Assembly: GCA_028713935.1 (NCBI GenBank)
Contig: JAQTNI010000010.1
Span: forward strand, 1-32,000
Direction: 5' to 3'
DNA: 32,000 nucleotides
Source: Candidatus Iainarchaeum sp.
GTDB taxonomy: Archaea; Iainarchaeota; Iainarchaeia; Iainarchaeales; GCA-2688035
Of this stretch, positions 295 to 32,000 are shown one piece after another (the first letter of the stretch is position 1; the number at the start of each line of letters is the position of its first letter). The position numbers and the translations under genes are program-made. Under the pieces are notes generated by a model. It was not told where the DNA came from, did no database searches, and worked only from the letters and a program-made list of their open reading frames with translations.

Positions 295-3200
295 TCATGT
301 ATTGCACCGATAACAATATGTTCGCCCATTATCATAACCTTCTTTAAGCCAATTGATTTCATTTTCTTGGTAAGTGAATGGTAACTTCCAGCCATAAATC
401 TTTGCGGAGCCCCCGCCTAAATATGCGCCGAAAGTGTGTCCGAATAATTCCATTTTTCCATCTGCGTCAGTGTCTCCAATTACCAAGCCAGTGAGATAAT
501 CCAACCCGTTTGTAATCCAGGTAATTGGAATCGAATCAGATAGTACTTGCCCGCTTCCACTATAAACATATAATCGATCTTTTCCGACATTCATTATTTC
601 CGCTTTTTGGTCAAAATCAAAGTCATAAAGAAAAAAGTTGCCTCCCAGCAATTGCTCTTCTAGGGGTATTGATACCAATAAGTTTAGTTGGTTATCATAT
701 ACCCGTATATCATAATTTTCCATTGATTGGTCTGATTCAACTGCTAAAATTTCCGGACTTTCATCTCCGGAAACATCACTTATTTGAATTCGGACGGAGC
801 CATTATACTGGCTTGTTGTTGCAGAATACTGTATGCTTAAGTTTTTTAAGACAAACAACGTATTCGATTTGCTACAGATAAGTTCAAGCGTTCCATCTCC
901 ATCAAGGTCTGCAATTGCCCTTACAAGCATTTTATTTTGTGTTGTTTGTATTAGCTGATATGTTCCGTCAGTATGAAAATTAGCAATCATCAGCGGCCCG
1001 TTGTATCTTGTATAAACGATATCTTTCCCCCCATCATTGAACAAATCTCCGACCGCAAAAGAGGGATGCTCAAGCCTACCGTAATCAATTACTATTGGTG
1101 ACTGAGACAAAAATGACATGCGTATTCCTTTCATCCCTTGAGTGTTGTCATTGATATTTATTATTTCATATTGTCCGTCGCCATCTAAATCTGCAACTGT
1201 TGTTTGGCGCGAGGTTTTTTGTTCATTAAATAGTACTTGACCATTATCATCAAACAAAATGCCGTCCGCAAACAATTCGTTTTGTCCATCTTGATCGACA
1301 TTGACAAAGAATAGCGATTCTGCCCTGTCAACGAAACTTGTGTTGCTACCGGAAATGTCGAGGTTGTTTTGTCCTTGATAGTCAAACAAAAAAGAGGCAA
1401 GGGCAAGTGTCTCAGGATACGGGGTGTCTATGTCGCCAGCAATATCCATTGTGGTAGTGCCCCGAAAGTTCCCAATATTGATTGTTGTAAGAGCACTGTT
1501 ATTGGGAGTTTGTATTGTTTTTGGCCATCCCGGTGCATAATTATCATTGTTAATAAAGGCATTTCCAATCACTAGATATTCCTCAAATGATTCTTCATTT
1601 TGCGGGGTAACCGTGACTCTATAGACTTCCCCGGTGCTTTCTGGATTGGCAAAGTCAATTGTCAGGGCATCGGCTTGTGGCTCGCCAGAAGAAAATTCCC
1701 TGAAATAAATTAATTCCCAAGCTAAGTCTTGTTCTTTGAAATCATATGATGAAAAAATAGCTCTGTCAATTTTCACCATTGATTGATTTGGGTTATATCC
1801 TACAGAATAGGTTAATGTAAAAGGCTCGCTTTCATAGAAATCAGTTGATAATTCAGCTTCTATAACAGGGACAATTCCGTGATACTGAACTGCCAGTAGA
1901 CCATCTACCATTCCCACGCCCTCTTCTATGAACGGGTTATTGTAACTGACTGCAGTATGTTTCAAGAGGGATTTAATTTGGAGCGGAGACCAATCCGGGT
2001 GCTGTTGCTTTAATAATGCAGCTATGCCAGCCACATGAGGCGAGGCCATTGATGTCCCCGATATTCCTACATGGCTTTCATCAAGGCAACGATAATCTGA
2101 CCATGCATCATCAAATTCTGCAGCACAAATAACAGCCCCTGGGGCAGACAAATCCGGTTTTAACACGCCATATTTCCCTGGGCCACGAGAACTAAAACCA
2201 GTAATTTTTCCCGTTGGAGGATTAATATCGCCCCAGTATAGTCCATCATAATTTTTTTTGAATCCGGCACCAACACTAATTGCGTTCCTTGCTACGCTCG
2301 GTGAACAATTTGCCGAATGATGGGTTCCTTCCGGATAATTAATATTTCTACACACAACATTTCCGTAAGGCCCCGAATTGCCTGCAGATACTACGGCAAT
2401 AATGCCATTCTCTACGGCATTGTCAACCGCCAAACTTAGTGGGTCATCTGCACCCCCAATTCCTCCCAAACTAAGATTAATTACATCTAAAATATCATTT
2501 GGATCATCCTCTTCAGGATCAATTCCATAAATATATCCATCTCCATCCACATCAAATGAGCGGTCAACAGCCAGAATTATATTTTCCGTGTAGCCACTAC
2601 CAGAAGAATTAAGAACTTTGTAGGCATAAATGTTAGCTTCTGGTGCGACTCCTTTCAGGATTCCGTTTCCGGCTGCAGTTGCAGCCACGTGGGTGCCATG
2701 CCCCATGTCATCTATTGGGTCAGCATCATTGTTTACAAAATCCCAACCCCCCAAGACCTTGCATCCCAAACCAATGCAACCGCCTAAGTCCGGGTGGGTA
2801 TAATCCACTCCCGTATCAATGATTCCAATGCGGATTCCTTTTCCAGTTAGGCACTGACGGTGAGGCAGAGATTTTTCTGTTGTTGGGTTATCTCTTTGAA
2901 TAGGTATTGGATTTTCCGCTTCCATCAAGCACAAGGAACCGTGCCTATTTAGTTTCCAAACATCGTTTGCATTAATAAGGGGAACTGAGTCCATGAGCAT
3001 TGCATAAACTGTCGCGTTTGGATATACCTCTACCCCCCCTGGCAATTGGTTGAGCAAGTTTTTTACTATTGCCTCTTTTGGAATAAACATAGTATTCAGC
3101 ATATTTACTGTTTTGTGAACTTGGTTGCTTGAAACACCCAAGAGGGTAAGCAATCGTTCTTGTTCGGCTTTTATCTTATTTTTGTGGGCTTTAAGGGAGA

Positions 3201-3654
3201 AGGTTAAATTTTTTTCTAGTTCTTCGGCTTTTGAAATGTTTTCGACAATGCCTGTTTTTTTTAATCCCTCAATCTGCTGTTTCGTTTTTTGATTTTTTTC
3301 TAATATACTTTCGAATCCAAGCCTTTGGTCTATGAGAATTATTCCATTGTTTCCTTCGGATTGCAGGAAATTATAAATAGAATCCTCGCTTCTCAAATTA
3401 ATTGTTGGCGCAATATCAATTAAAGAATTTTGTTTTGGAATCAAGTTCTTTGGTTCTGTAGCAACAACATCACTTGGTGTTTTTTGGGTTACCTCAAATA
3501 CAGGAGCAGGATTTGTAGTTTGTGCCCCTTGAAAAGGCACAGTAAGAAGGACTGAACCAGAGTTCAGGTTCAATGCAGTTAAGGCAATTCCCGCAACAAC
3601 AATAATGCCCACAATTAGAAAAACAGCAATTCCTGCCTGGGCATTTGAATTCAT
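295..3654 (-). CDS. Membrane-anchored S8 subtilisin-like serine protease with C-terminal FG-GAP/VCBS-type repeat region
   Basis: ORF 295..3669. Catalytic motifs IGIIDTGVDYTHPDL (Asp), HGTHVAATAAGNG (His) and GTSMASPHVAGIAALL (Ser). Hydrophobic N-terminal anchor AGIAVFLIVGIIVVAGIALTAL after ATG at 3654. Seven DxDxDG-like repeats in the C-terminal ~430 aa (VNVDQDGQNE, DLDGDGQYE, DLFNDGGKD, DLDGDGTLE, DVSGDESPE, DFDFDQKAE, DTDADGKME). Confidence 0.9.
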   Translation of the reverse strand: MNSNAQAGIAVFLIVGIIVVAGIALTALNLNSGSVLLTVPFQGAQTTNPAPVFEVTQKTPSDVVATEPKNLIPKQNSLIDIAPTINLRSEDSIYNFLQSEGNNGIILIDQRLGFESILEKNQKTKQQIEGLKKTGIVENISKAEELEKNLTFSLKAHKNKIKAEQERLLTLLGVSSNQVHKTVNMLNTMFIPKEAIVKNLLNQLPGGVEVYPNATVYAMLMDSVPLINANDVWKLNRHGSLCLMEAENPIPIQRDNPTTEKSLPHRQCLTGKGIRIGIIDTGVDYTHPDLGGCIGLGCKVLGGWDFVNNDADPIDDMGHGTHVAATAAGNGILKGVAPEANIYAYKVLNSSGSGYTENIILAVDRSFDVDGDGYIYGIDPEEDDPNDILDVINLSLGGIGGADDPLSLAVDNAVENGIIAVVSAGNSGPYGNVVCRNINYPEGTHHSANCSPSVARNAISVGAGFKKNYDGLYWGDINPPTGKITGFSSRGPGKYGVLKPDLSAPGAVICAAEFDDAWSDYRCLDESHVGISGTSMASPHVAGIAALLKQQHPDWSPLQIKSLLKHTAVSYNNPFIEEGVGMVDGLLAVQYHGIVPVIEAELSTDFYESEPFTLTYSVGYNPNQSMVKIDRAIFSSYDFKEQDLAWELIYFREFSSGEPQADALTIDFANPESTGEVYRVTVTPQNEESFEEYLVIGNAFINNDNYAPGWPKTIQTPNNSALTTINIGNFRGTTTMDIAGDIDTPYPETLALASFLFDYQGQNNLDISGSNTSFVDRAESLFFVNVDQDGQNELFADGILFDDNGQVLFNEQKTSRQTTVADLDGDGQYEIININDNTQGMKGIRMSFLSQSPIVIDYGRLEHPSFAVGDLFNDGGKDIVYTRYNGPLMIANFHTDGTYQLIQTTQNKMLVRAIADLDGDGTLELICSKSNTLFVLKNLSIQYSATTSQYNGSVRIQISDVSGDESPEILAVESDQSMENYDIRVYDNQLNLLVSIPLEEQLLGGNFFLYDFDFDQKAEIMNVGKDRLYVYSGSGQVLSDSIPITWITNGLDYLTGLVIGDTDADGKMELFGHTFGAYLGGGSAKIYGWKLPFTYQENEINWLKEGYDNGRTYCYRCNT

Positions 3655-3687
3655 GAAAAAGAAAGGCACAAACTACTATTTAAATGT

Positions 3688-27987: not shown

Positions 27988-28488
27988 CTATCTGGTTTTT
28001 TTCAGGGCAGAATCGCAGATGTCGCAGCGCTTTTCTTCTGTTGTGTTTGGGAATTCTTTGGCGCAGTTTGAGCAGACTGTCCTGAAAGAAATTGTTTTTG
28101 AAATTTTTCCCTGGATTATCGGTTCAAAGGGAATTTCCAATAACAGGCAAAAATTTTGTATGCTATAATCATCAGTAACCACTGTGAATGCTTCCGGCAT
28201 TTCCCTGAATTCCACTGCAAGCGCAATGATTGAAAGGTCTGCGCTGCTCAGCCTCTGAAAGCCGCTTTGCATTGTTTTTCTTGCAACCCAGCCGACTGTT
28301 TCGGGTTTTGGGTCAAAAACAGAAATCAATTGCCTTTGCAGGGCTGATTCCAAGAGGCTTTTGCTTCTCAAATCCTTTATTTCCCAGACTATTTCAGAGG
28401 TTGTTGCATAAGCAAACTCTTCCTTGAAGGAAAAATTGAAGTCATTCAGGACAGCGGAACTGTCCAATAAGAGAACTTTTTTTGGCAT
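27988..28488 (-). CDS. nob1: Nob1-like endonuclease (PIN domain plus zinc ribbon)
   Basis: From ATG 28488: MPKKVLLLDSSAVLNDF... (PIN, acidic residues D9, E..., VVTDDYSIQN) and C-terminal CSNC...CDIC zinc ribbon. The upstream 134 codons of ORF 27988..28890 are antisense to pheS and its promoter and were discarded. Confidence 0.75.
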   Translation of the reverse strand: MPKKVLLLDSSAVLNDFNFSFKEEFAYATTSEIVWEIKDLRSKSLLESALQRQLISVFDPKPETVGWVARKTMQSGFQRLSSADLSIIALAVEFREMPEAFTVVTDDYSIQNFCLLLEIPFEPIIQGKISKTISFRTVCSNCAKEFPNTTEEKRCDICDSALKKTR

Positions 28489-28545
28489 AAAAAAACACTT
28501 TTTTGATACAACAAAAGAGAAATACTGCTTATTACAAGTCCAGGA

Positions 28546-28598
28546 TTTCTTTCTTTTTGGCAACCTACATTTTTCTTTCTTTTGCAAAGAAAGAAAAA
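28546..28598. repeat. Polypyrimidine mirror repeat plus complementary polypurine arm (triplex / H-DNA capable element, copy B)
   Basis: TTTCTTTCTTTTT (28546..28558), 11-nt spacer, TTTTTCTTTCTTT (28570..28582), TGC, AAAGAAAGAAAAA (28586..28598). Arms 2 and 3 form a 13-bp perfect hairpin. Arm 1 is the exact mirror of arm 2. Confidence 0.85.
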
Positions 28599-28630
28599 GG
28601 CGGGTATTAAATAATTCTTTGCTTAAATAG

Positions 28631-28643
28631 TTAATTAAATATT
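28631..28643 (+). promoter_or_regulatory. TATA-like box upstream of pheS
   Basis: TTAATTAAATATT lies ~30-40 nt upstream of ATG 28673. Confidence 0.3.
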
Positions 28644-28672
28644 GGTGTTTAGTGCAGTGTAAGTGATGTTTC

Positions 28673-30130
28673 ATGGATTTGAAGGCAATCGCGGCATCGC
28701 TCAGCGAAATTGAAAAAAAAGCCCTGAAGGCAATCGGCTCTGAAGAGAGTTTTTCCTTTGAGGAAATTGCAGGCAAAAGCGGGCTGCAGATTGATTCTGT
28801 CAGGAGGGCAATGGGCTGGCTTGCGGAAAAAAAGCTTGTTGAAATAAGCGAGGAAAAAAAATTTGAAAAAAGGCTCACTGAAAAAGGCAAAATTTACCTT
28901 GAAAAAGGCATGCCTGAAGAGGTTTTTTTGGATTGCCTTGAAAAAATTGGCGGAACAAGCGATTTTGAAGAATTGCAGAAAAAAACCTTTTTGCCAAAAG
29001 AAGAATTTGGGTTTGCGCTTGGCTTTAACAGGAAAAAAAATTTTGTAGTAATTTTGAAAGGCGAAAAGCCGCGCATACAATTGACTGGGCTTTCAAAGGA
29101 ACTCCCCCCTGAAAGCGGAAAAGAACTTTTGGAAAAAATCGAGGAAAAAAAACTTCTTGAAAGGGAAAAATTTTTGGAATTAAGGGAAAGGGGAATTGTT
29201 GAAGAAATTGAAAAAACAGCGAGAAAAGCAAGAATCAATGAACAGGGAAAAAAAGCGCTTGAAGCAATTGGCAGTGCAAAGGAACGCGCTTATAATATCC
29301 AGGGCGCTGTCCCGGAAATTTTTATTGGAAAAAAACAGCCTTATGTGAGGTTTCTGCAGGGCATAAGGAGAAAGCTCACTGAACTCGGCTTTGTTGAAAT
29401 GGATTCCCCTGCCATAGTGCAGGAATTTTATAATTTTGATGTCTTGTTTCAGCCCCAGAACCATCCCGCAAGGCAATGGGCCGACACTTACCAGTTAAAA
29501 CAGCCAAAATTTGGCGCGCTTCCCCCTGAAAAAATTGTTGAAAAAATAAAGGCTGCACATGAAAATGGTGCTGGCACAGGAAGCAGGGGCTGGCAGTACA
29601 AATGGGACATTGAAATCGCAAAAAAGCTCATGCCTGCAGCGCATGCCACTGCGCATTCAGCAAGGCAGCTTGTGAAAGGCGTTAAAGTTCCCGGAAAATA
29701 TTTTTCAATTTCGCGCTGTTACAGGCCGGACATTGTCGATGCAAAGCACCTTATTGAATTCAACCAGATGGATGGAATAATTATTGACGAACAAATGAAT
29801 TTCAGGAAATTACTGGGAATGTTAAGGCAATTTGCAGTTGAATTTGCAGGAACAGAAAAAATAAAATTTGTTCCAAGCTATTACCCTTTCACAGAGCCAA
29901 GCTGCCAGTTGAATGTAAAGCACCCGGAGCTCGGATGGATAGAGCTTGGAGGAAGCGGAATTTTTCGGCCTGAATTAACCTTGCCTTTAGGAATAAAACA
30001 GCCAGTGCTTGCCTGGGGCCTTGGAATTGACAGGCTTGCAATGGTAAAGCTTGGCATAAAAGACATAAGGCAATTGTTTTCAGACGATTTAAACTGGCTG
30101 AGAAAACAACCAATGGCGGCGATTGAATGA
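28673..30130 (+). CDS. pheS: Phenylalanine--tRNA ligase alpha subunit (archaeal/eukaryotic type)
   Basis: N-terminal winged-helix repeats, then class II core motifs FQPQNHPARQWADTYQL, HATAHSARQL, YRPDIVDAKHLIEFNQMDG, YYPFTEPS and GSGIFRPE. Confidence 0.93.
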   Translation: MDLKAIAASLSEIEKKALKAIGSEESFSFEEIAGKSGLQIDSVRRAMGWLAEKKLVEISEEKKFEKRLTEKGKIYLEKGMPEEVFLDCLEKIGGTSDFEELQKKTFLPKEEFGFALGFNRKKNFVVILKGEKPRIQLTGLSKELPPESGKELLEKIEEKKLLEREKFLELRERGIVEEIEKTARKARINEQGKKALEAIGSAKERAYNIQGAVPEIFIGKKQPYVRFLQGIRRKLTELGFVEMDSPAIVQEFYNFDVLFQPQNHPARQWADTYQLKQPKFGALPPEKIVEKIKAAHENGAGTGSRGWQYKWDIEIAKKLMPAAHATAHSARQLVKGVKVPGKYFSISRCYRPDIVDAKHLIEFNQMDGIIIDEQMNFRKLLGMLRQFAVEFAGTEKIKFVPSYYPFTEPSCQLNVKHPELGWIELGGSGIFRPELTLPLGIKQPVLAWGLGIDRLAMVKLGIKDIRQLFSDDLNWLRKQPMAAIE

Positions 30131-30684
30131 GTCCAAAACGTTACCGCCCTCCTCGAATATTACGCATGAGTGATGCTATCAATGCATTAACAAGTAAAGG
30201 GCTAAATACTTCTGACGCTGACATGGTGGTGCGCAAACTTCACACACGACATATTGGCCCCCAACGAGCACTCCTATTTCTCATGCAACACGCGACACCA
30301 GAAGAGCTAAGAAAAATCGCACAACAAGGCCAGACAATGGGAAAACAGCGAACTCCGATCACACAGCCACACCAAAGCCTTGCAAATTTTGTGCTTCACA
30401 TGGCACTGGGCAAAATTTCCCAATTGCACGCAAGCCAATCCGGGGCTGGAAAGTTCTACAAATCGCTTCAAGAAGGAATTGCAAGCAAATTAGGTTTTGT
30501 GGACATCACGCCGCTTGTCACAGACAGACTCAGACCCAGGCATAATCCTGCATTGTTTCAAACATTTATCCGCTTGGAGCGAGAACTCCTTCTGCACGAA
30601 AAAACAGGCAGGTTATTGACGCCTGAAGGAATAACCGCGCAAGAAAGATTTTGGAAATTTGTTCAACAGAGTATAAAAGAGTGA
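30127..30684 (+). CDS. Hypothetical basic protein, paralog of 30758..31291 (atypical CGN-rich Arg codon usage)
   Basis: ATG overlaps the pheS stop (ATGA). Alignable to the next ORF: MSPKRYRP/MRPKIRP, KGLNTSDADMVVRKL/KTGLQQRDFDFLLQAL, GPQRAL/GQTRAL, TPEELRKIAQQ/LPAEQLRGLAAK, HMALGKISQL/EHALGKIRSL, TPEGITAQERFWKFV/TPEFRETEKIFRRIV. Confidence 0.65.
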   Translation: MSPKRYRPPRILRMSDAINALTSKGLNTSDADMVVRKLHTRHIGPQRALLFLMQHATPEELRKIAQQGQTMGKQRTPITQPHQSLANFVLHMALGKISQLHASQSGAGKFYKSLQEGIASKLGFVDITPLVTDRLRPRHNPALFQTFIRLERELLLHEKTGRLLTPEGITAQERFWKFVQQSIKE

Positions 30685-30761
30685 AAAAAAAGCTTTCTTT
30701 AGAAATAAGCAAAAAAGGTTTGGAAATGCTTGCAAGAAAAAAAGCAAGGGTGATACTGTGA
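30681..30761 (+). pseudogene. Relic duplicate of the pheT 5' end, retained as a 26-codon mini-ORF
   Basis: GTGAAAAAAAAGCTTTCTTTAGAAATAAGCAAAAAAGGTTTGGAAATGCTTGCAAGAA versus the pheT start GTGAAAAAAATGCCTTCTCTTGAAATCAGCAAAAAAGATTTGGAATCCCTTGCAAAAA: about 52 of 62 nt identical with no gaps. It translates to VKKKLSLEISKKGLEMLARKK, versus VKKMPSLEISKKDLESLAKTK for pheT. GTGA overlaps occur at both ends (30681..30684 and 30758..30761). Confidence 0.6.
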
Positions 30762-31291
30762 GGCCAAAAATCAGGCCACTGGTTCAGGCAAGAGAAAGCG
30801 CAGTGGCTCTTTACAGAATGGAAAAGGTTATGCAAAAAACAGGTTTGCAGCAAAGAGACTTTGATTTTTTGCTGCAGGCTTTAAGGCCTGAAAACCCTGG
30901 GCAAACAAGGGCATTAAACGGAATTCTTGCAAGCCTGCCAGCTGAACAATTAAGGGGGCTTGCAGCAAAATTGCGCGCAGGGCAAACAACCAGGAACCAG
31001 ATATTGCCAAGGAAATCTTCTGAACACGCTTTGGGAAAAATCCGGAGTCTGGCTCCGGGCACATTTGGAAAAGAACTTTTAACATTAAAAACCAGATACA
31101 AAATGGGTTACAGGGACATAATCCCTGAAGCTGTGCGCAGGGCAAGCCATGTATATCTTTCGCGGGGAGAACGCGCGGATTTTGACAGGGCAAGCAGGGT
31201 TTTGATAGAAATGGAAAGACAGGGAAAAAAAGGGACTCCTGAATTCAGGGAAACTGAAAAAATTTTTCGCAGGATAGTAAAACATTTATAG
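30758..31291 (+). CDS. Hypothetical basic protein, paralog of 30127..30684 (host-like AGR Arg codons)
   Basis: 177-aa ORF with a GTG start overlapping the mini-ORF stop. The TAG stop lies directly before GTG 31292 and 9 nt before the pheT ATG. Motif alignment is given under 30127..30684. Confidence 0.65.
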   Translation: MRPKIRPLVQARESAVALYRMEKVMQKTGLQQRDFDFLLQALRPENPGQTRALNGILASLPAEQLRGLAAKLRAGQTTRNQILPRKSSEHALGKIRSLAPGTFGKELLTLKTRYKMGYRDIIPEAVRRASHVYLSRGERADFDRASRVLIEMERQGKKGTPEFRETEKIFRRIVKHL

Positions 31292-31300
31292 GTGAAAAAA

Positions 31301-32000
31301 ATGCCTTCTCTTGAAATCAGCAAAAAAGATTTGGAATCCCTTGCAAAAACAAAATTTGCCTCAAAGGAAAAGCTTGAAGAGGCATTGGAGTTTGCAAAAT
31401 GCGAGCTTGATGCAATTGAAGGCGACAAGCTTGCCATTGGAGTGAGCGATACAAACAGGCCTGATTTGTTAAGCGCAGAAGGCATTGCAAGGGAAATAAG
31501 AAGCCATTATTCAAAAGAAAAAGGAGTGCCAAAATACAAAATAACAAATTCCAGTGTTTCGCTTATTGTTGACAAAAACATTGAAAAAATCCGGCCCTGC
31601 ATTGCAGCCGCAATAGTGAAAAAAGTGAATGTAACAGAAGAATTTTTGGCGCAAATGATTCAATTGCAGGAAAAGGTTTGCCTGACTTTTGGAAGAAAAA
31701 GAAAAGAAGCAGCAATCGGCCTATATGATTGGTCAAAGCTGAAAGCGCCAATGCATTACAAGGCATTCAGGCCAAAAGAGCTGAAATTTATTCCGCTTGA
31801 TTACAAGGCAGAAATGGACCTGGAAGAAATTTTGCTTGAGCACCCAAAGGGAAAAGAATACGCGCATCTCCTCAAAGGATTCGAAAAATATCCCATTGTA
31901 ATTGACAACGAGGGAAAAGTCGCTTCAATGCCGCCGGTTATTAATTCACAGGCAACAGGCAAGGTTTCTGAAACAACAAAAGAGCTTCTTGTGGAAGTGA
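31301..32000 (+). CDS. pheT: Phenylalanine--tRNA ligase beta subunit, N-terminal part (runs off the window)
   Basis: Open frame from ATG 31301 (or in-frame GTG 31292) to the window end with no stop. MPSLEISKKDLESLAKTKF...LAIGVSDTNRPDLLSAEGIAREI...ASMPPVINS is typical of the archaeal PheT B3/B4 region. Not in the ORF track because it has no stop. Confidence 0.88.
   Translation, partial: MPSLEISKKDLESLAKTKFASKEKLEEALEFAKCELDAIEGDKLAIGVSDTNRPDLLSAEGIAREIRSHYSKEKGVPKYKITNSSVSLIVDKNIEKIRPCIAAAIVKKVNVTEEFLAQMIQLQEKVCLTFGRKRKEAAIGLYDWSKLKAPMHYKAFRPKELKFIPLDYKAEMDLEEILLEHPKGKEYAHLLKGFEKYPIVIDNEGKVASMPPVINSQATGKVSETTKELLVEV

Follow-up and report, generated by a model that had tools for sequence, protein, structure and literature searches.

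Two divergent paralogs and a relic pheT start between pheS and pheT of a Candidatus Iainarchaeum genome

Why do two divergent genes of one family stand between the two subunit genes of an essential aminoacyl-tRNA synthetase, and why is a broken copy of the second subunit gene's start lodged between them? This arrangement occurs on contig JAQTNI010000010.1, which belongs to the metagenome-assembled genome of a DPANN archaeon, Candidatus Iainarchaeum. The stretch of 32,000 nucleotides (nt) of this contig analysed here is called the window; its genes discussed below lie on the + strand unless stated otherwise. Herein pheS, which encodes the alpha subunit of phenylalanyl-tRNA synthetase (PheRS), is followed by two open reading frames (ORFs), P5 and P6, and these by pheT, the gene of the beta subunit. 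The coordinates are collected in Table 1. An earlier note on this DNA had described the junctions of these genes (ATGA at 30127, GTGA at the P5 stop and at the P6 start, and TAG-GTG at 31289..31294), and all of them are present at the coordinates that it gave. As judged by sequence comparison, P5 and P6 are members of a very small, fast-evolving, single-lineage family without known relatives. With slightly better than even confidence, we infer that the tandem pair and the decaying pheT stub arose at a permissive site of the operon, by unequal or illegitimate recombination between two cassette alleles that had diverged beforehand.

The homology of P5 and P6 was determined by two pairwise methods. 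BLASTP aligns them with 28% identity over 158 amino acids (aa; E 4e-7). Their Smith-Waterman score of 88 compares with a mean of 31.9 for shuffles of P6 (standard deviation 5.3, maximum 57; z = 10.6), and 0 of 2000 shuffles reach 88. With proteins only about 30% identical, the synonymous sites of the two genes are saturated. Three more members came from an exhaustive HMMER profile search, which covered 1.84 billion cluster representatives of a library standing for ~15 billion proteins: P0003 (193 aa, E 2e-9), P0004 (187 aa, E 9.5e-5) and P0006 (123 aa, E 6e-4). A further candidate, P0005 (373 aa, E 1.4e-4), was discounted as repetitive. The P family thus consists of five proteins in this library. 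A second search with the five-member profile and a scan of the metagenomes added no member, and word-index protein searches with P5, P6 and the five-sequence profile returned the known members only. Conservation across the family alignment is too low to derive a degenerate search pattern from it.

Two subfamilies can be distinguished. The P5-like one contains P5 and P0003 (Smith-Waterman z = 30), and the P6-like one contains P6, P0006 (z = 21.9 with P6) and P0004 (z = 14.6 with P6); scores across the subfamilies are weak (P0003-P0004 z = 1, P5-P0004 z = 4.4). Searches of P5, P6 and the three homologs against Pfam, PHROGs, NCBIfam and PADLOC gave nothing significant, and a PDB sequence-profile search with a P protein gave no match. 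The description of P5 and P6 as divergent paralogs of an unrecognised family is hence borne out, and the sensitive profile searches and structure prediction that the earlier note had called for matched the P proteins to no known family or fold.

The second element of the locus is the copy of the pheT start between P5 and P6. An ungapped 62-nt copy with about 52 identities had been described; the copy is real, with 51 of 62 positions identical between 30681..30742 and 31292..31353, and the best other placement of the 62-mer on both strands of the 32 kb window reaches 36/62. Its left edge is sharp and begins exactly at GTGA, since the 30 nt upstream match at only 8 positions. The stub and the functional pheT 5' end are direct repeats, 82% identical and 611 bp apart. 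The stub has kept the GTGA of pheT, which doubles as the P5 stop, and has lost the start codon. The 11 differences are spread over codon positions 1, 2 and 3 as 2, 6 and 3, with six codons changed non-synonymously and two synonymously; this spread points to a decaying fragment and not to a sequence under coding selection.

A 26-codon mini-ORF runs through the stub and the tail behind it. It has no counterpart in the relatives whose species genomes and metagenomes were scanned, and RNA folding of the three junctions revealed no structure beyond that of shuffles (z = -1.15 for the mini-ORF). Judging by these features, the mini-ORF is probably not a gene. A coupling chain leading from P5 through the mini-ORF to P6 had been proposed; it is unnecessary and unsupported, since the ATG of the stub is lost, the differences are not codon-biased and P6 has its own GGGTGA. 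The GTG at 31292, which had been put forward as a pheT start, does not fare better. In all relatives pheT starts with MPS/MPN...E from an ATG that follows a (G)GTGA motif and a stretch of A residues, and the window shows AGGTGA (31290..31295), AAAAA and ATG 31301, with the conserved protein start MPSLE. The arrangement (G)GTGA-A5-6-ATG is also present before pheT in L001, L081 and L083 (loci of relatives are given L numbers). GTG 31292 is therefore a piece of the Shine-Dalgarno-like motif and not a start codon.

How the stub came to stand between two P genes is best seen from the relatives, where P0003 lies between pheS and pheT in L081 and L082, P0004 in L083, and P0006 in L084-L087 and also in L001 and L088. 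L081 and L083 come from near-conspecific genomes, as shown by 97% identity over 69 aa at the C-terminus of pheS and by pheT 5' ends that agree at 57/62 nt. Despite these near-identical flanks, the P gene of L081 is P5-like and that of L083 is P6-like. In a nucleotide alignment the two loci match at 25-28 of 30 positions per block up to the pheS stop, drop to ~45% with many gaps through the P gene, and return to 27-28/30 from GTGAAAAAAATGCC, the pheT ribosome-binding site, onward.

Both junctions of the window have counterparts among these single-gene loci. The P5-stub junction (...GAGTGAAAAAAAAGC) matches the junction from the P5-like gene to pheT in L081 (...GAGTGAAAAAAATGCC), with the preceding ~45 nt of the gene end conserved as well, and the P6-pheT junction (TAGGTGAAAAAAATGCC) matches those of L083 and L001. 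Since both junctions mirror those of relatives, the window locus looks like a P5-type locus that was cut ~53 nt into pheT and then fused with one of P6 type. Among the pheT 5' ends compared, the one in the window itself is the most similar to the stub (51 of 62 positions), followed by the pheT 5' ends of L001 (46), L017 (42), L083 (41) and L081 (38), which points to a recombination partner of the same lineage or a very close relative and not to an L081-like donor. The earlier suggestion of recombination with a related donor is hence sustained as to recombination, whereas the related donor is not required, the relatives reaching at most 46/62. The tail that follows the stub (30743..30761) resembles the pheS 3' ends of L083 (19/27) and L081 (14/19), with an empirical p of ~0.05-0.08 against an A-rich background. 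The similarity is suggestive and not significant; the tail may have been left over from the 3' end of a pheS gene, in which case the joint would be a textbook case of unequal crossing-over.

The following course of events is proposed. Two old subfamilies, P5-like and P6-like, would be alternative occupants of one slot. A pheS-P5-pheT locus would have been broken ~53 nt into pheT and joined just upstream of P6 in a pheS-P6-pheT locus, and this join would leave the 62-nt stub with the pheT ribosome-binding site and 5' end between P5 and P6 as a decaying pseudo-fragment and not as a coupling device. The 82%-identical direct repeats could in turn delete P6. The P genes would persist in a permissive junction that is tightly bounded by essential genes and in which other DPANN archaea carry toxin-antitoxin-like and further accessory genes. 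Such a locus resembles the junctions produced by unequal crossing-over: a paralogous unit stands between 62-nt direct repeats 611 bp apart, of which one is the truncated, inactivated 5' end of the downstream gene and the other the intact functional copy. It differs from a simple tandem duplication in that the P proteins share only ~30% identity, compared with 82% DNA identity of the repeats; hence, the event most likely joined two divergent alleles instead of duplicating one. Read in this manner, the locus would be a recombination intermediate, holding both cassette types and the pheT stub, that shows how genes are gained and lost in such slots. Its value is that of a well-defined lead and not of a new mechanism or function.

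The slot itself was surveyed by comparing the window pheS with one genome per species (GTDB) and with JGI metagenomes, and by collecting loci with pheS and then pheT on one strand. Among 75 loci from species-representative DPANN genomes, the gap between the two genes is at most 60 nt in 52 and exceeds 150 nt in 21; for the 68 JGI loci the numbers are 50 and 16. The pheS-pheT junction is thus a variable slot across DPANN. All five known P members are located at this junction in Iainarchaeum-like genomes. Relatives have a single P gene per locus, of either subfamily; pheS and pheT are adjacent without an insert in L017, the closest relative, and P genes are missing from most Iainarchaeia. The comparison of the interval across relatives and metagenomes, as the earlier note had advised, hence shows that both presence and copy number vary. 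The family is an undescribed orphan family of five without a recognisable fold, whose whole known range is one junction in an essential aminoacyl-tRNA synthetase operon.

Gaps longer than 150 nt are mostly filled by co-oriented ORFs that are not P-related by hidden Markov model (HMM) and hhalign. Pfam assigns this cargo to a NUDIX protein in Aenigmatarchaeota, to a nitroreductase and a xylose-isomerase-like TIM barrel, and to the nucleotidyltransferases and the PIN protein of Table 1; all four cargo loci listed there hold toxin-antitoxin-like gene pairs. Several small-ORF families, by eye zinc-ribbon or unknown basic proteins, add to these, some of them as tandem paralogs. These ORFs of other lineages are not hidden members of the P family, since hhalign of the family against the L015 pair, L015c and L016 detected no relation. 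The idea of a hypervariable cargo slot therefore survives in part: L017 is empty, relatives carry one P gene, and unrelated cargo occurs in 21 of 75 DPANN species, but arbitrary foreign cargo does not describe the P genes, whose five known members occur only here. About a quarter of the sampled DPANN species carry diverse co-oriented cargo at the junction, which bears on the retention of accessory genes in ultra-small, deletion-prone genomes. A literature search found no description of such inserts at the pheS-pheT junction, whether for archaea in general or for DPANN.

Among known systems, the slot resembles the flexible genomic islets or integration hotspots of bacterial pangenomes, in which one position between conserved genes holds varied or no cargo depending on the lineage. 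It differs from them by lying within an essential two-gene aminoacyl-tRNA synthetase operon, by cargo that is co-oriented and fitted into the translational signals, and by the lack of any integrase, tRNA gene or mobile-element hallmark. Three loci of the survey show additional details. L015 and L100, from other Iainarchaeum-like genomes, have tandem arrays of their own, made of small ORFs that are basic or K/E-rich. In L015 (7537..9001), two slot ORFs of 165 and 175 aa are 34% identical to each other and are accompanied by a 122-aa ORF, and L100 (2268..4041) contains four slot ORFs of 123-165 aa; neither set belongs to the P family by HMM and hhalign. In L081 (5603..7229), pheT is called as two ORFs of 270 aa (B3_4) and 261 aa (B5, tRNA_synthFbeta) that lie 28 nt apart; this pheT could be split or frameshifted.

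All members of the P family are strongly basic, with isoelectric points (pI) of 10.1-11.0. In an AlphaFold2 (AF2) model of P5 built on the five-sequence alignment, nine helices are grouped into one block at residues 14-73 and another at 85-182; the model has a predicted local distance difference test (pLDDT) score of 74.3 and a predicted template modelling (pTM) score of 0.47; a two-sequence alignment gave a pLDDT of 57.6. Foldseek searches of the AF2 model against PDB and BFVD returned best E values of ~0.5, mostly to designed helical repeats, which are meaningless. Apart from the initiator Met, the only invariant residues are F110, R134, F147, E158 and F175; an enzymatic activity is unlikely, since these residues are few and form no catalytic-looking motif. 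The best-conserved element is a C-terminal aromatic-basic helix, GITAQxRFWKF in the P5-like and IFRRIV or EFRRIV in the P6-like proteins. A helix-turn-helix (HTH) hint is confined to P0004 (HTH_28, E 0.042, sub-threshold), where it covers the N-domain turn GL-x3-x-A-x2-L. P0006 lacks the whole N-terminal half including this N-domain.

On the basis of the pI of 10-11, the possible HTH-like N-domain and the lack of conserved catalytic residues, the P proteins are tentatively viewed as non-enzymatic nucleic-acid binders, and, with similarly low confidence, as dispensable for PheRS. They resemble archaeal small basic nucleic-acid-binding or HTH proteins in being small, helical and of pI 10-11, with an N-domain that may contain an HTH-like turn (GL-x3-D/Q-A). 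The likeness goes no further, since the P family has no significant sequence or structure match to any of them. A toxin-antitoxin module was considered for the pair and rejected: P5 and P6 are homologous to each other and not of different families, Pfam, PADLOC and NCBIfam gave no match, and relatives carry a single copy.

Several points weigh against the recombination of two divergent alleles and its framing. The right-hand breakpoint is not provable: the 19-34 nt tail resembles pheS 3' ends with a p of ~0.05-0.08, which is not significant. The order of events is deduced from a single genome, as no relative has the same tandem. "Hotspot", if applied to the variable junction, is a descriptive and not a statistical term. 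The lack of Foldseek matches is weak evidence for a new fold, because the AF2 model is only moderate (pLDDT 74, pTM 0.47, five sequences). Finally, because the split of P5 and P6 predates the window and L081 clades, the distribution of the genes is explained just as parsimoniously by an ancient tandem pair that underwent differential loss.

This last point leads to the best-surviving rival, which deserves real weight although it is on balance improbable. According to it, the 3' tip of pheS, a P gene and the 5' tip of pheT were duplicated in situ in the ancestor of the clade, and the copies then diverged to ~30% identity. Relatives with no or one P gene would be products of differential loss, possibly via the flanking relic repeats, and gene conversion would keep the stub pheT-like. 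The occurrence of both subfamilies in the window clade and in the more distant L081/L083 clade (pheS 58% identical) indeed makes the split old; a paralogous unit between direct repeats is the classic signature of duplication; the stub is most like the resident pheT, as expected of gene conversion; and precise single-gene loci are the expected leftovers of repeat-mediated deletion. However, the dead 62-nt stub is still 82% identical while the genes are at ~30% protein identity, for which conversion of a 62-nt tract is possible but ad hoc, and the tandem state occurs in no other genome.

Codon usage adds a further argument against an ancient duplication. The earlier note had stated that P5 uses mostly CGN codons for Arg and P6 mostly AGR codons like the host genes, and the counts agree: the CGN:AGR ratio is 10:6 in P5, 6:18 in P6 and 73:170 in 21 host ORFs. 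The synonymous-codon score of P5 is 0.001, compared with a mean of 0.139 for the 21 host ORFs (standard deviation 0.049, minimum 0.034), and that of P6 is 0.20; the GC skew of P5 is -0.09. In L081, the P5-like P0003 (5001..5582) likewise has a score of -0.023 versus a host mean of 0.151 (standard deviation 0.040), and the score of the P6-like P0006 lies above the mean of its host L084. The oddity in codons and GC skew is thus a trait of the P5 subfamily, seen in both of its genes and in two hosts, and not of the window genome, and both P6-like genes are host-like. The poorer codon adaptation in two different genomes favours a more recent or repeated lateral arrival of the P5-type genes, later than that of the P6-type.

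A second rival regards the P proteins as a true accessory of PheRS, for example a subunit that binds tRNA(Phe) or mRNA in trans, or a protein that autoregulates the operon, with position and coupling reflecting a functional, stoichiometric link. It accounts for the location of every known member between pheS and pheT with an overlap of the pheS stop, and it fits the strong basicity (pI 10.1-11.0), the conserved C-terminal helix (RFWKF / IFRRIV / EFRRIV) and the weak HTH hint in P0004. It is nevertheless unlikely. The genes are missing in the closest relative L017 and in most Iainarchaeia, P0006 lacks its whole N-terminal half, and the P proteins are at ~30% identity where pheS and pheT are at 73-84%. 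In addition, hhalign of the P family against pheS and full-length pheT gave probabilities below 1% for any PheRS domain, and the same position holds unrelated accessory and toxin-antitoxin-like genes in other DPANN archaea. Nor do the P proteins look like split-off pieces of pheS or pheT, pheS (485 aa) and the pheT of relatives (551 aa) being full length.

A more speculative proposal, which we consider improbable, combines exchange with function. The P5- and P6-type genes would be fast-diversifying "idiomorph" cassettes that are exchanged among Iainarchaeia at one fixed site of the PheRS operon and act on PheRS, tRNA(Phe) or the operon mRNA, for example as immunity or counter-defence against attack on tRNA(Phe) charging. 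The pheS-pheT junction would then be a DPANN-wide safe harbour, where conflict genes including toxin-antitoxin genes are shielded from deletion and expressed free.

Very improbable is a self-mobilising cassette, in which the P protein would be the enzyme for homing or site-specific integration at the pheT 5' end and the 62-nt repeats would be att-like or target-site duplications. Close relatives do show presence/absence polymorphism at one precise site between conserved genes, P6 does lie between direct repeats, and the P5-type genes are compositionally foreign. As in integrative elements that bring a replacement gene end (integration at the 3' or 5' end of tRNA genes), a gene end is duplicated, with the full gene on one side and the stub on the other. 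Unlike such elements, the P6 "element" measures only 611 bp and has no recombinase, and the single-cassette loci L081, L083 and L084 have no flanking repeats. No nuclease, recombinase or integrase family or fold was matched in Pfam, PHROG, NCBIfam, PADLOC, PDB or Foldseek searches, and the invariant residues (F, R, F, E, F) form no catalytic-looking motif. Relatives on viral contigs were absent as well, with none in single-protein scans of IMG/VR, no PHROG match and nothing in BFVD by Foldseek.

A chimeric contig of two strains, one with P5 and one with P6, is hardly credible: related populations do hold alternative cassettes in near-identical flanks, where assemblers can make chimeras, but a 2350-bp contig from an independent Logan assembly agrees base for base with window 29359..31708 and spans all junctions (pheS 3' end, P5, stub, P6 and pheT 5' end), no long repeat lies at the joint of stub and P6 to lead a k-mer assembler astray, and the stub differs from the resident pheT at 11/62 positions including the dead start codon, unlike a strain chimera. 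The pheS-P5-stub-P6-pheT arrangement is therefore not specific to one assembler.

With the recombined locus as the preferred reading, the expression of its genes can be considered. The junctions fit a translationally coupled polycistron, with ATGA at 30127, GGGTGA-4 nt-GTG before P6 and AGGTGA-5 nt-ATG before pheT, the coupling being a prediction from sequence. Termination-reinitiation may take place at the stop-start overlaps. The P genes would have no expression signals of their own and would ride on the PheRS operon: the first codon of P overlaps the stop of pheS, and the 3' end of each P gene would provide a GGTGA-type ribosome-binding site for the next cistron. In relatives, the overlap of the pheS stop and the P start is ATGA in L084, L001 and L081 (with a 210-aa ORF in the latter) and TAATG in L083. 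In the NCBI annotation, P5 and P6 are the locus tags PHD95_02595 and PHD95_02600; the NCBI start of P5 is Met14 (172 aa), and the Logan gene call gives 185 aa. The start at 30127 is favoured, since the basic N-terminus is common to P6, P0003, P0004 and P0006 and the ATGA overlap with pheS also occurs in relatives. A promoter/terminator scan found no terminator-like sites on the + strand from 30127 to 31301, but it models bacterial signals and says nothing about an archaeon. No match to Rfam families or to tRNA genes was obtained in the window.

Table 1. Coordinates of the pheS-pheT region in the window and of located slot cargo in other lineages
Feature	Location	Strand	Remarks
pheS	28673..30130	+	485 aa, archaeal-type PheRS alpha subunit; Pfam tRNA-synt_2d PF01409, E 1.1e-76
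ATGA, pheS stop overlapping P5 start	30127..30130	+	stop-start coupling motif, read directly
P5	30127..30684	+	185 aa, pI 10.8, all-alpha orphan, P5-like subfamily
26-codon mini-ORF	30681..30761	+	GTG 30681 start overlaps P5 stop; product VKKKLSLEISKKGLEMLARKKARVIL; relic stub and 19-nt tail
Relic copy of pheT ribosome-binding site and first 17-18 codons (left direct repeat)	30681..30742	+	start codon ATG changed to AAG at 30690..30692
Junction tail upstream of P6	30743..30757	+	Shine-Dalgarno-like GGGTGA 30748..30753, 4 nt before P6 GTG
P6	30758..31291	+	177 aa, GTG start overlapping the mini-ORF stop, pI 11.0, orphan, P6-like subfamily, host-like codon usage
AGGTGA, Shine-Dalgarno-like, for pheT	31290..31295	+	overlaps P6 stop TAG (31289..31291) and GTG 31292
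Functional pheT ribosome-binding site and 5' coding end (right direct repeat)	31292..31353	+	
pheT, PheRS beta subunit	31301..32000, continues beyond window	+	ATG start, protein begins MPSLEISKKDLE
Slot cargo, NTP_transf_2 nucleotidyltransferase (Pfam)	L031 7344..9142		neighbouring ORFs HEPN-like by eye only; one scanned without Pfam match
Slot cargo, PIN protein (Pfam)	L071 7572..8169		small upstream ORF AbrB-like by eye only
Slot cargo, NTP_transf_5/DUF6036 nucleotidyltransferase (Pfam)	L092 5467..6226		small ORF upstream
Slot cargo, toxin-antitoxin-like pair	L096 1324..2084		small upstream ORF, by eye only

The flanking synthetase genes are well conserved. The window pheS is 79% identical to that of L017 and 73% to that of L084, and the window pheT, over 233 aa, is 84% identical to that of L084 and 82% to that of L017; the Pfam matches of B3_4 and PhetRS_B1 to this part of pheT are weak and lie under the gathering threshold. 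The synteny around P5 and P6 is chromosomal and is common to the window and L084, including the gene order upstream of pheS (Lactamase_B_3, two unknown ORFs, PIN_6). Directly upstream of pheS, on the - strand (27988..28890), a mechanical ORF of 300 aa has a PIN_6 ribonuclease domain (residues 140-227). In all likelihood the actual gene is shorter, ~165-173 aa as in L084, so it is only through ORF calling that the 300-aa frame comes to overlap the start of pheS.

Two other regions of the window, both on the - strand, were noted. An archaeal LonB protease is apparently split over 16680..21092. The ORF 20076..21092 (338 aa) contains only the Walker-A end of the AAA+ domain, and the ORF 16680..18137 (485 aa) the remaining AAA+ domain, the LonB lid and Lon_C; the ORFs 18801..19988 (-, 395 aa) and 18201..18830 (+, 209 aa), neither with a Pfam match, lie between them. 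An insertion, an intein remnant or frameshifts are possible causes of this split. At 295..3669, a protein of 1124 aa combines a subtilase S8 domain with FG-GAP-like repeats; this large protein may serve the archaeon as a protease that is secreted or located at the cell surface.

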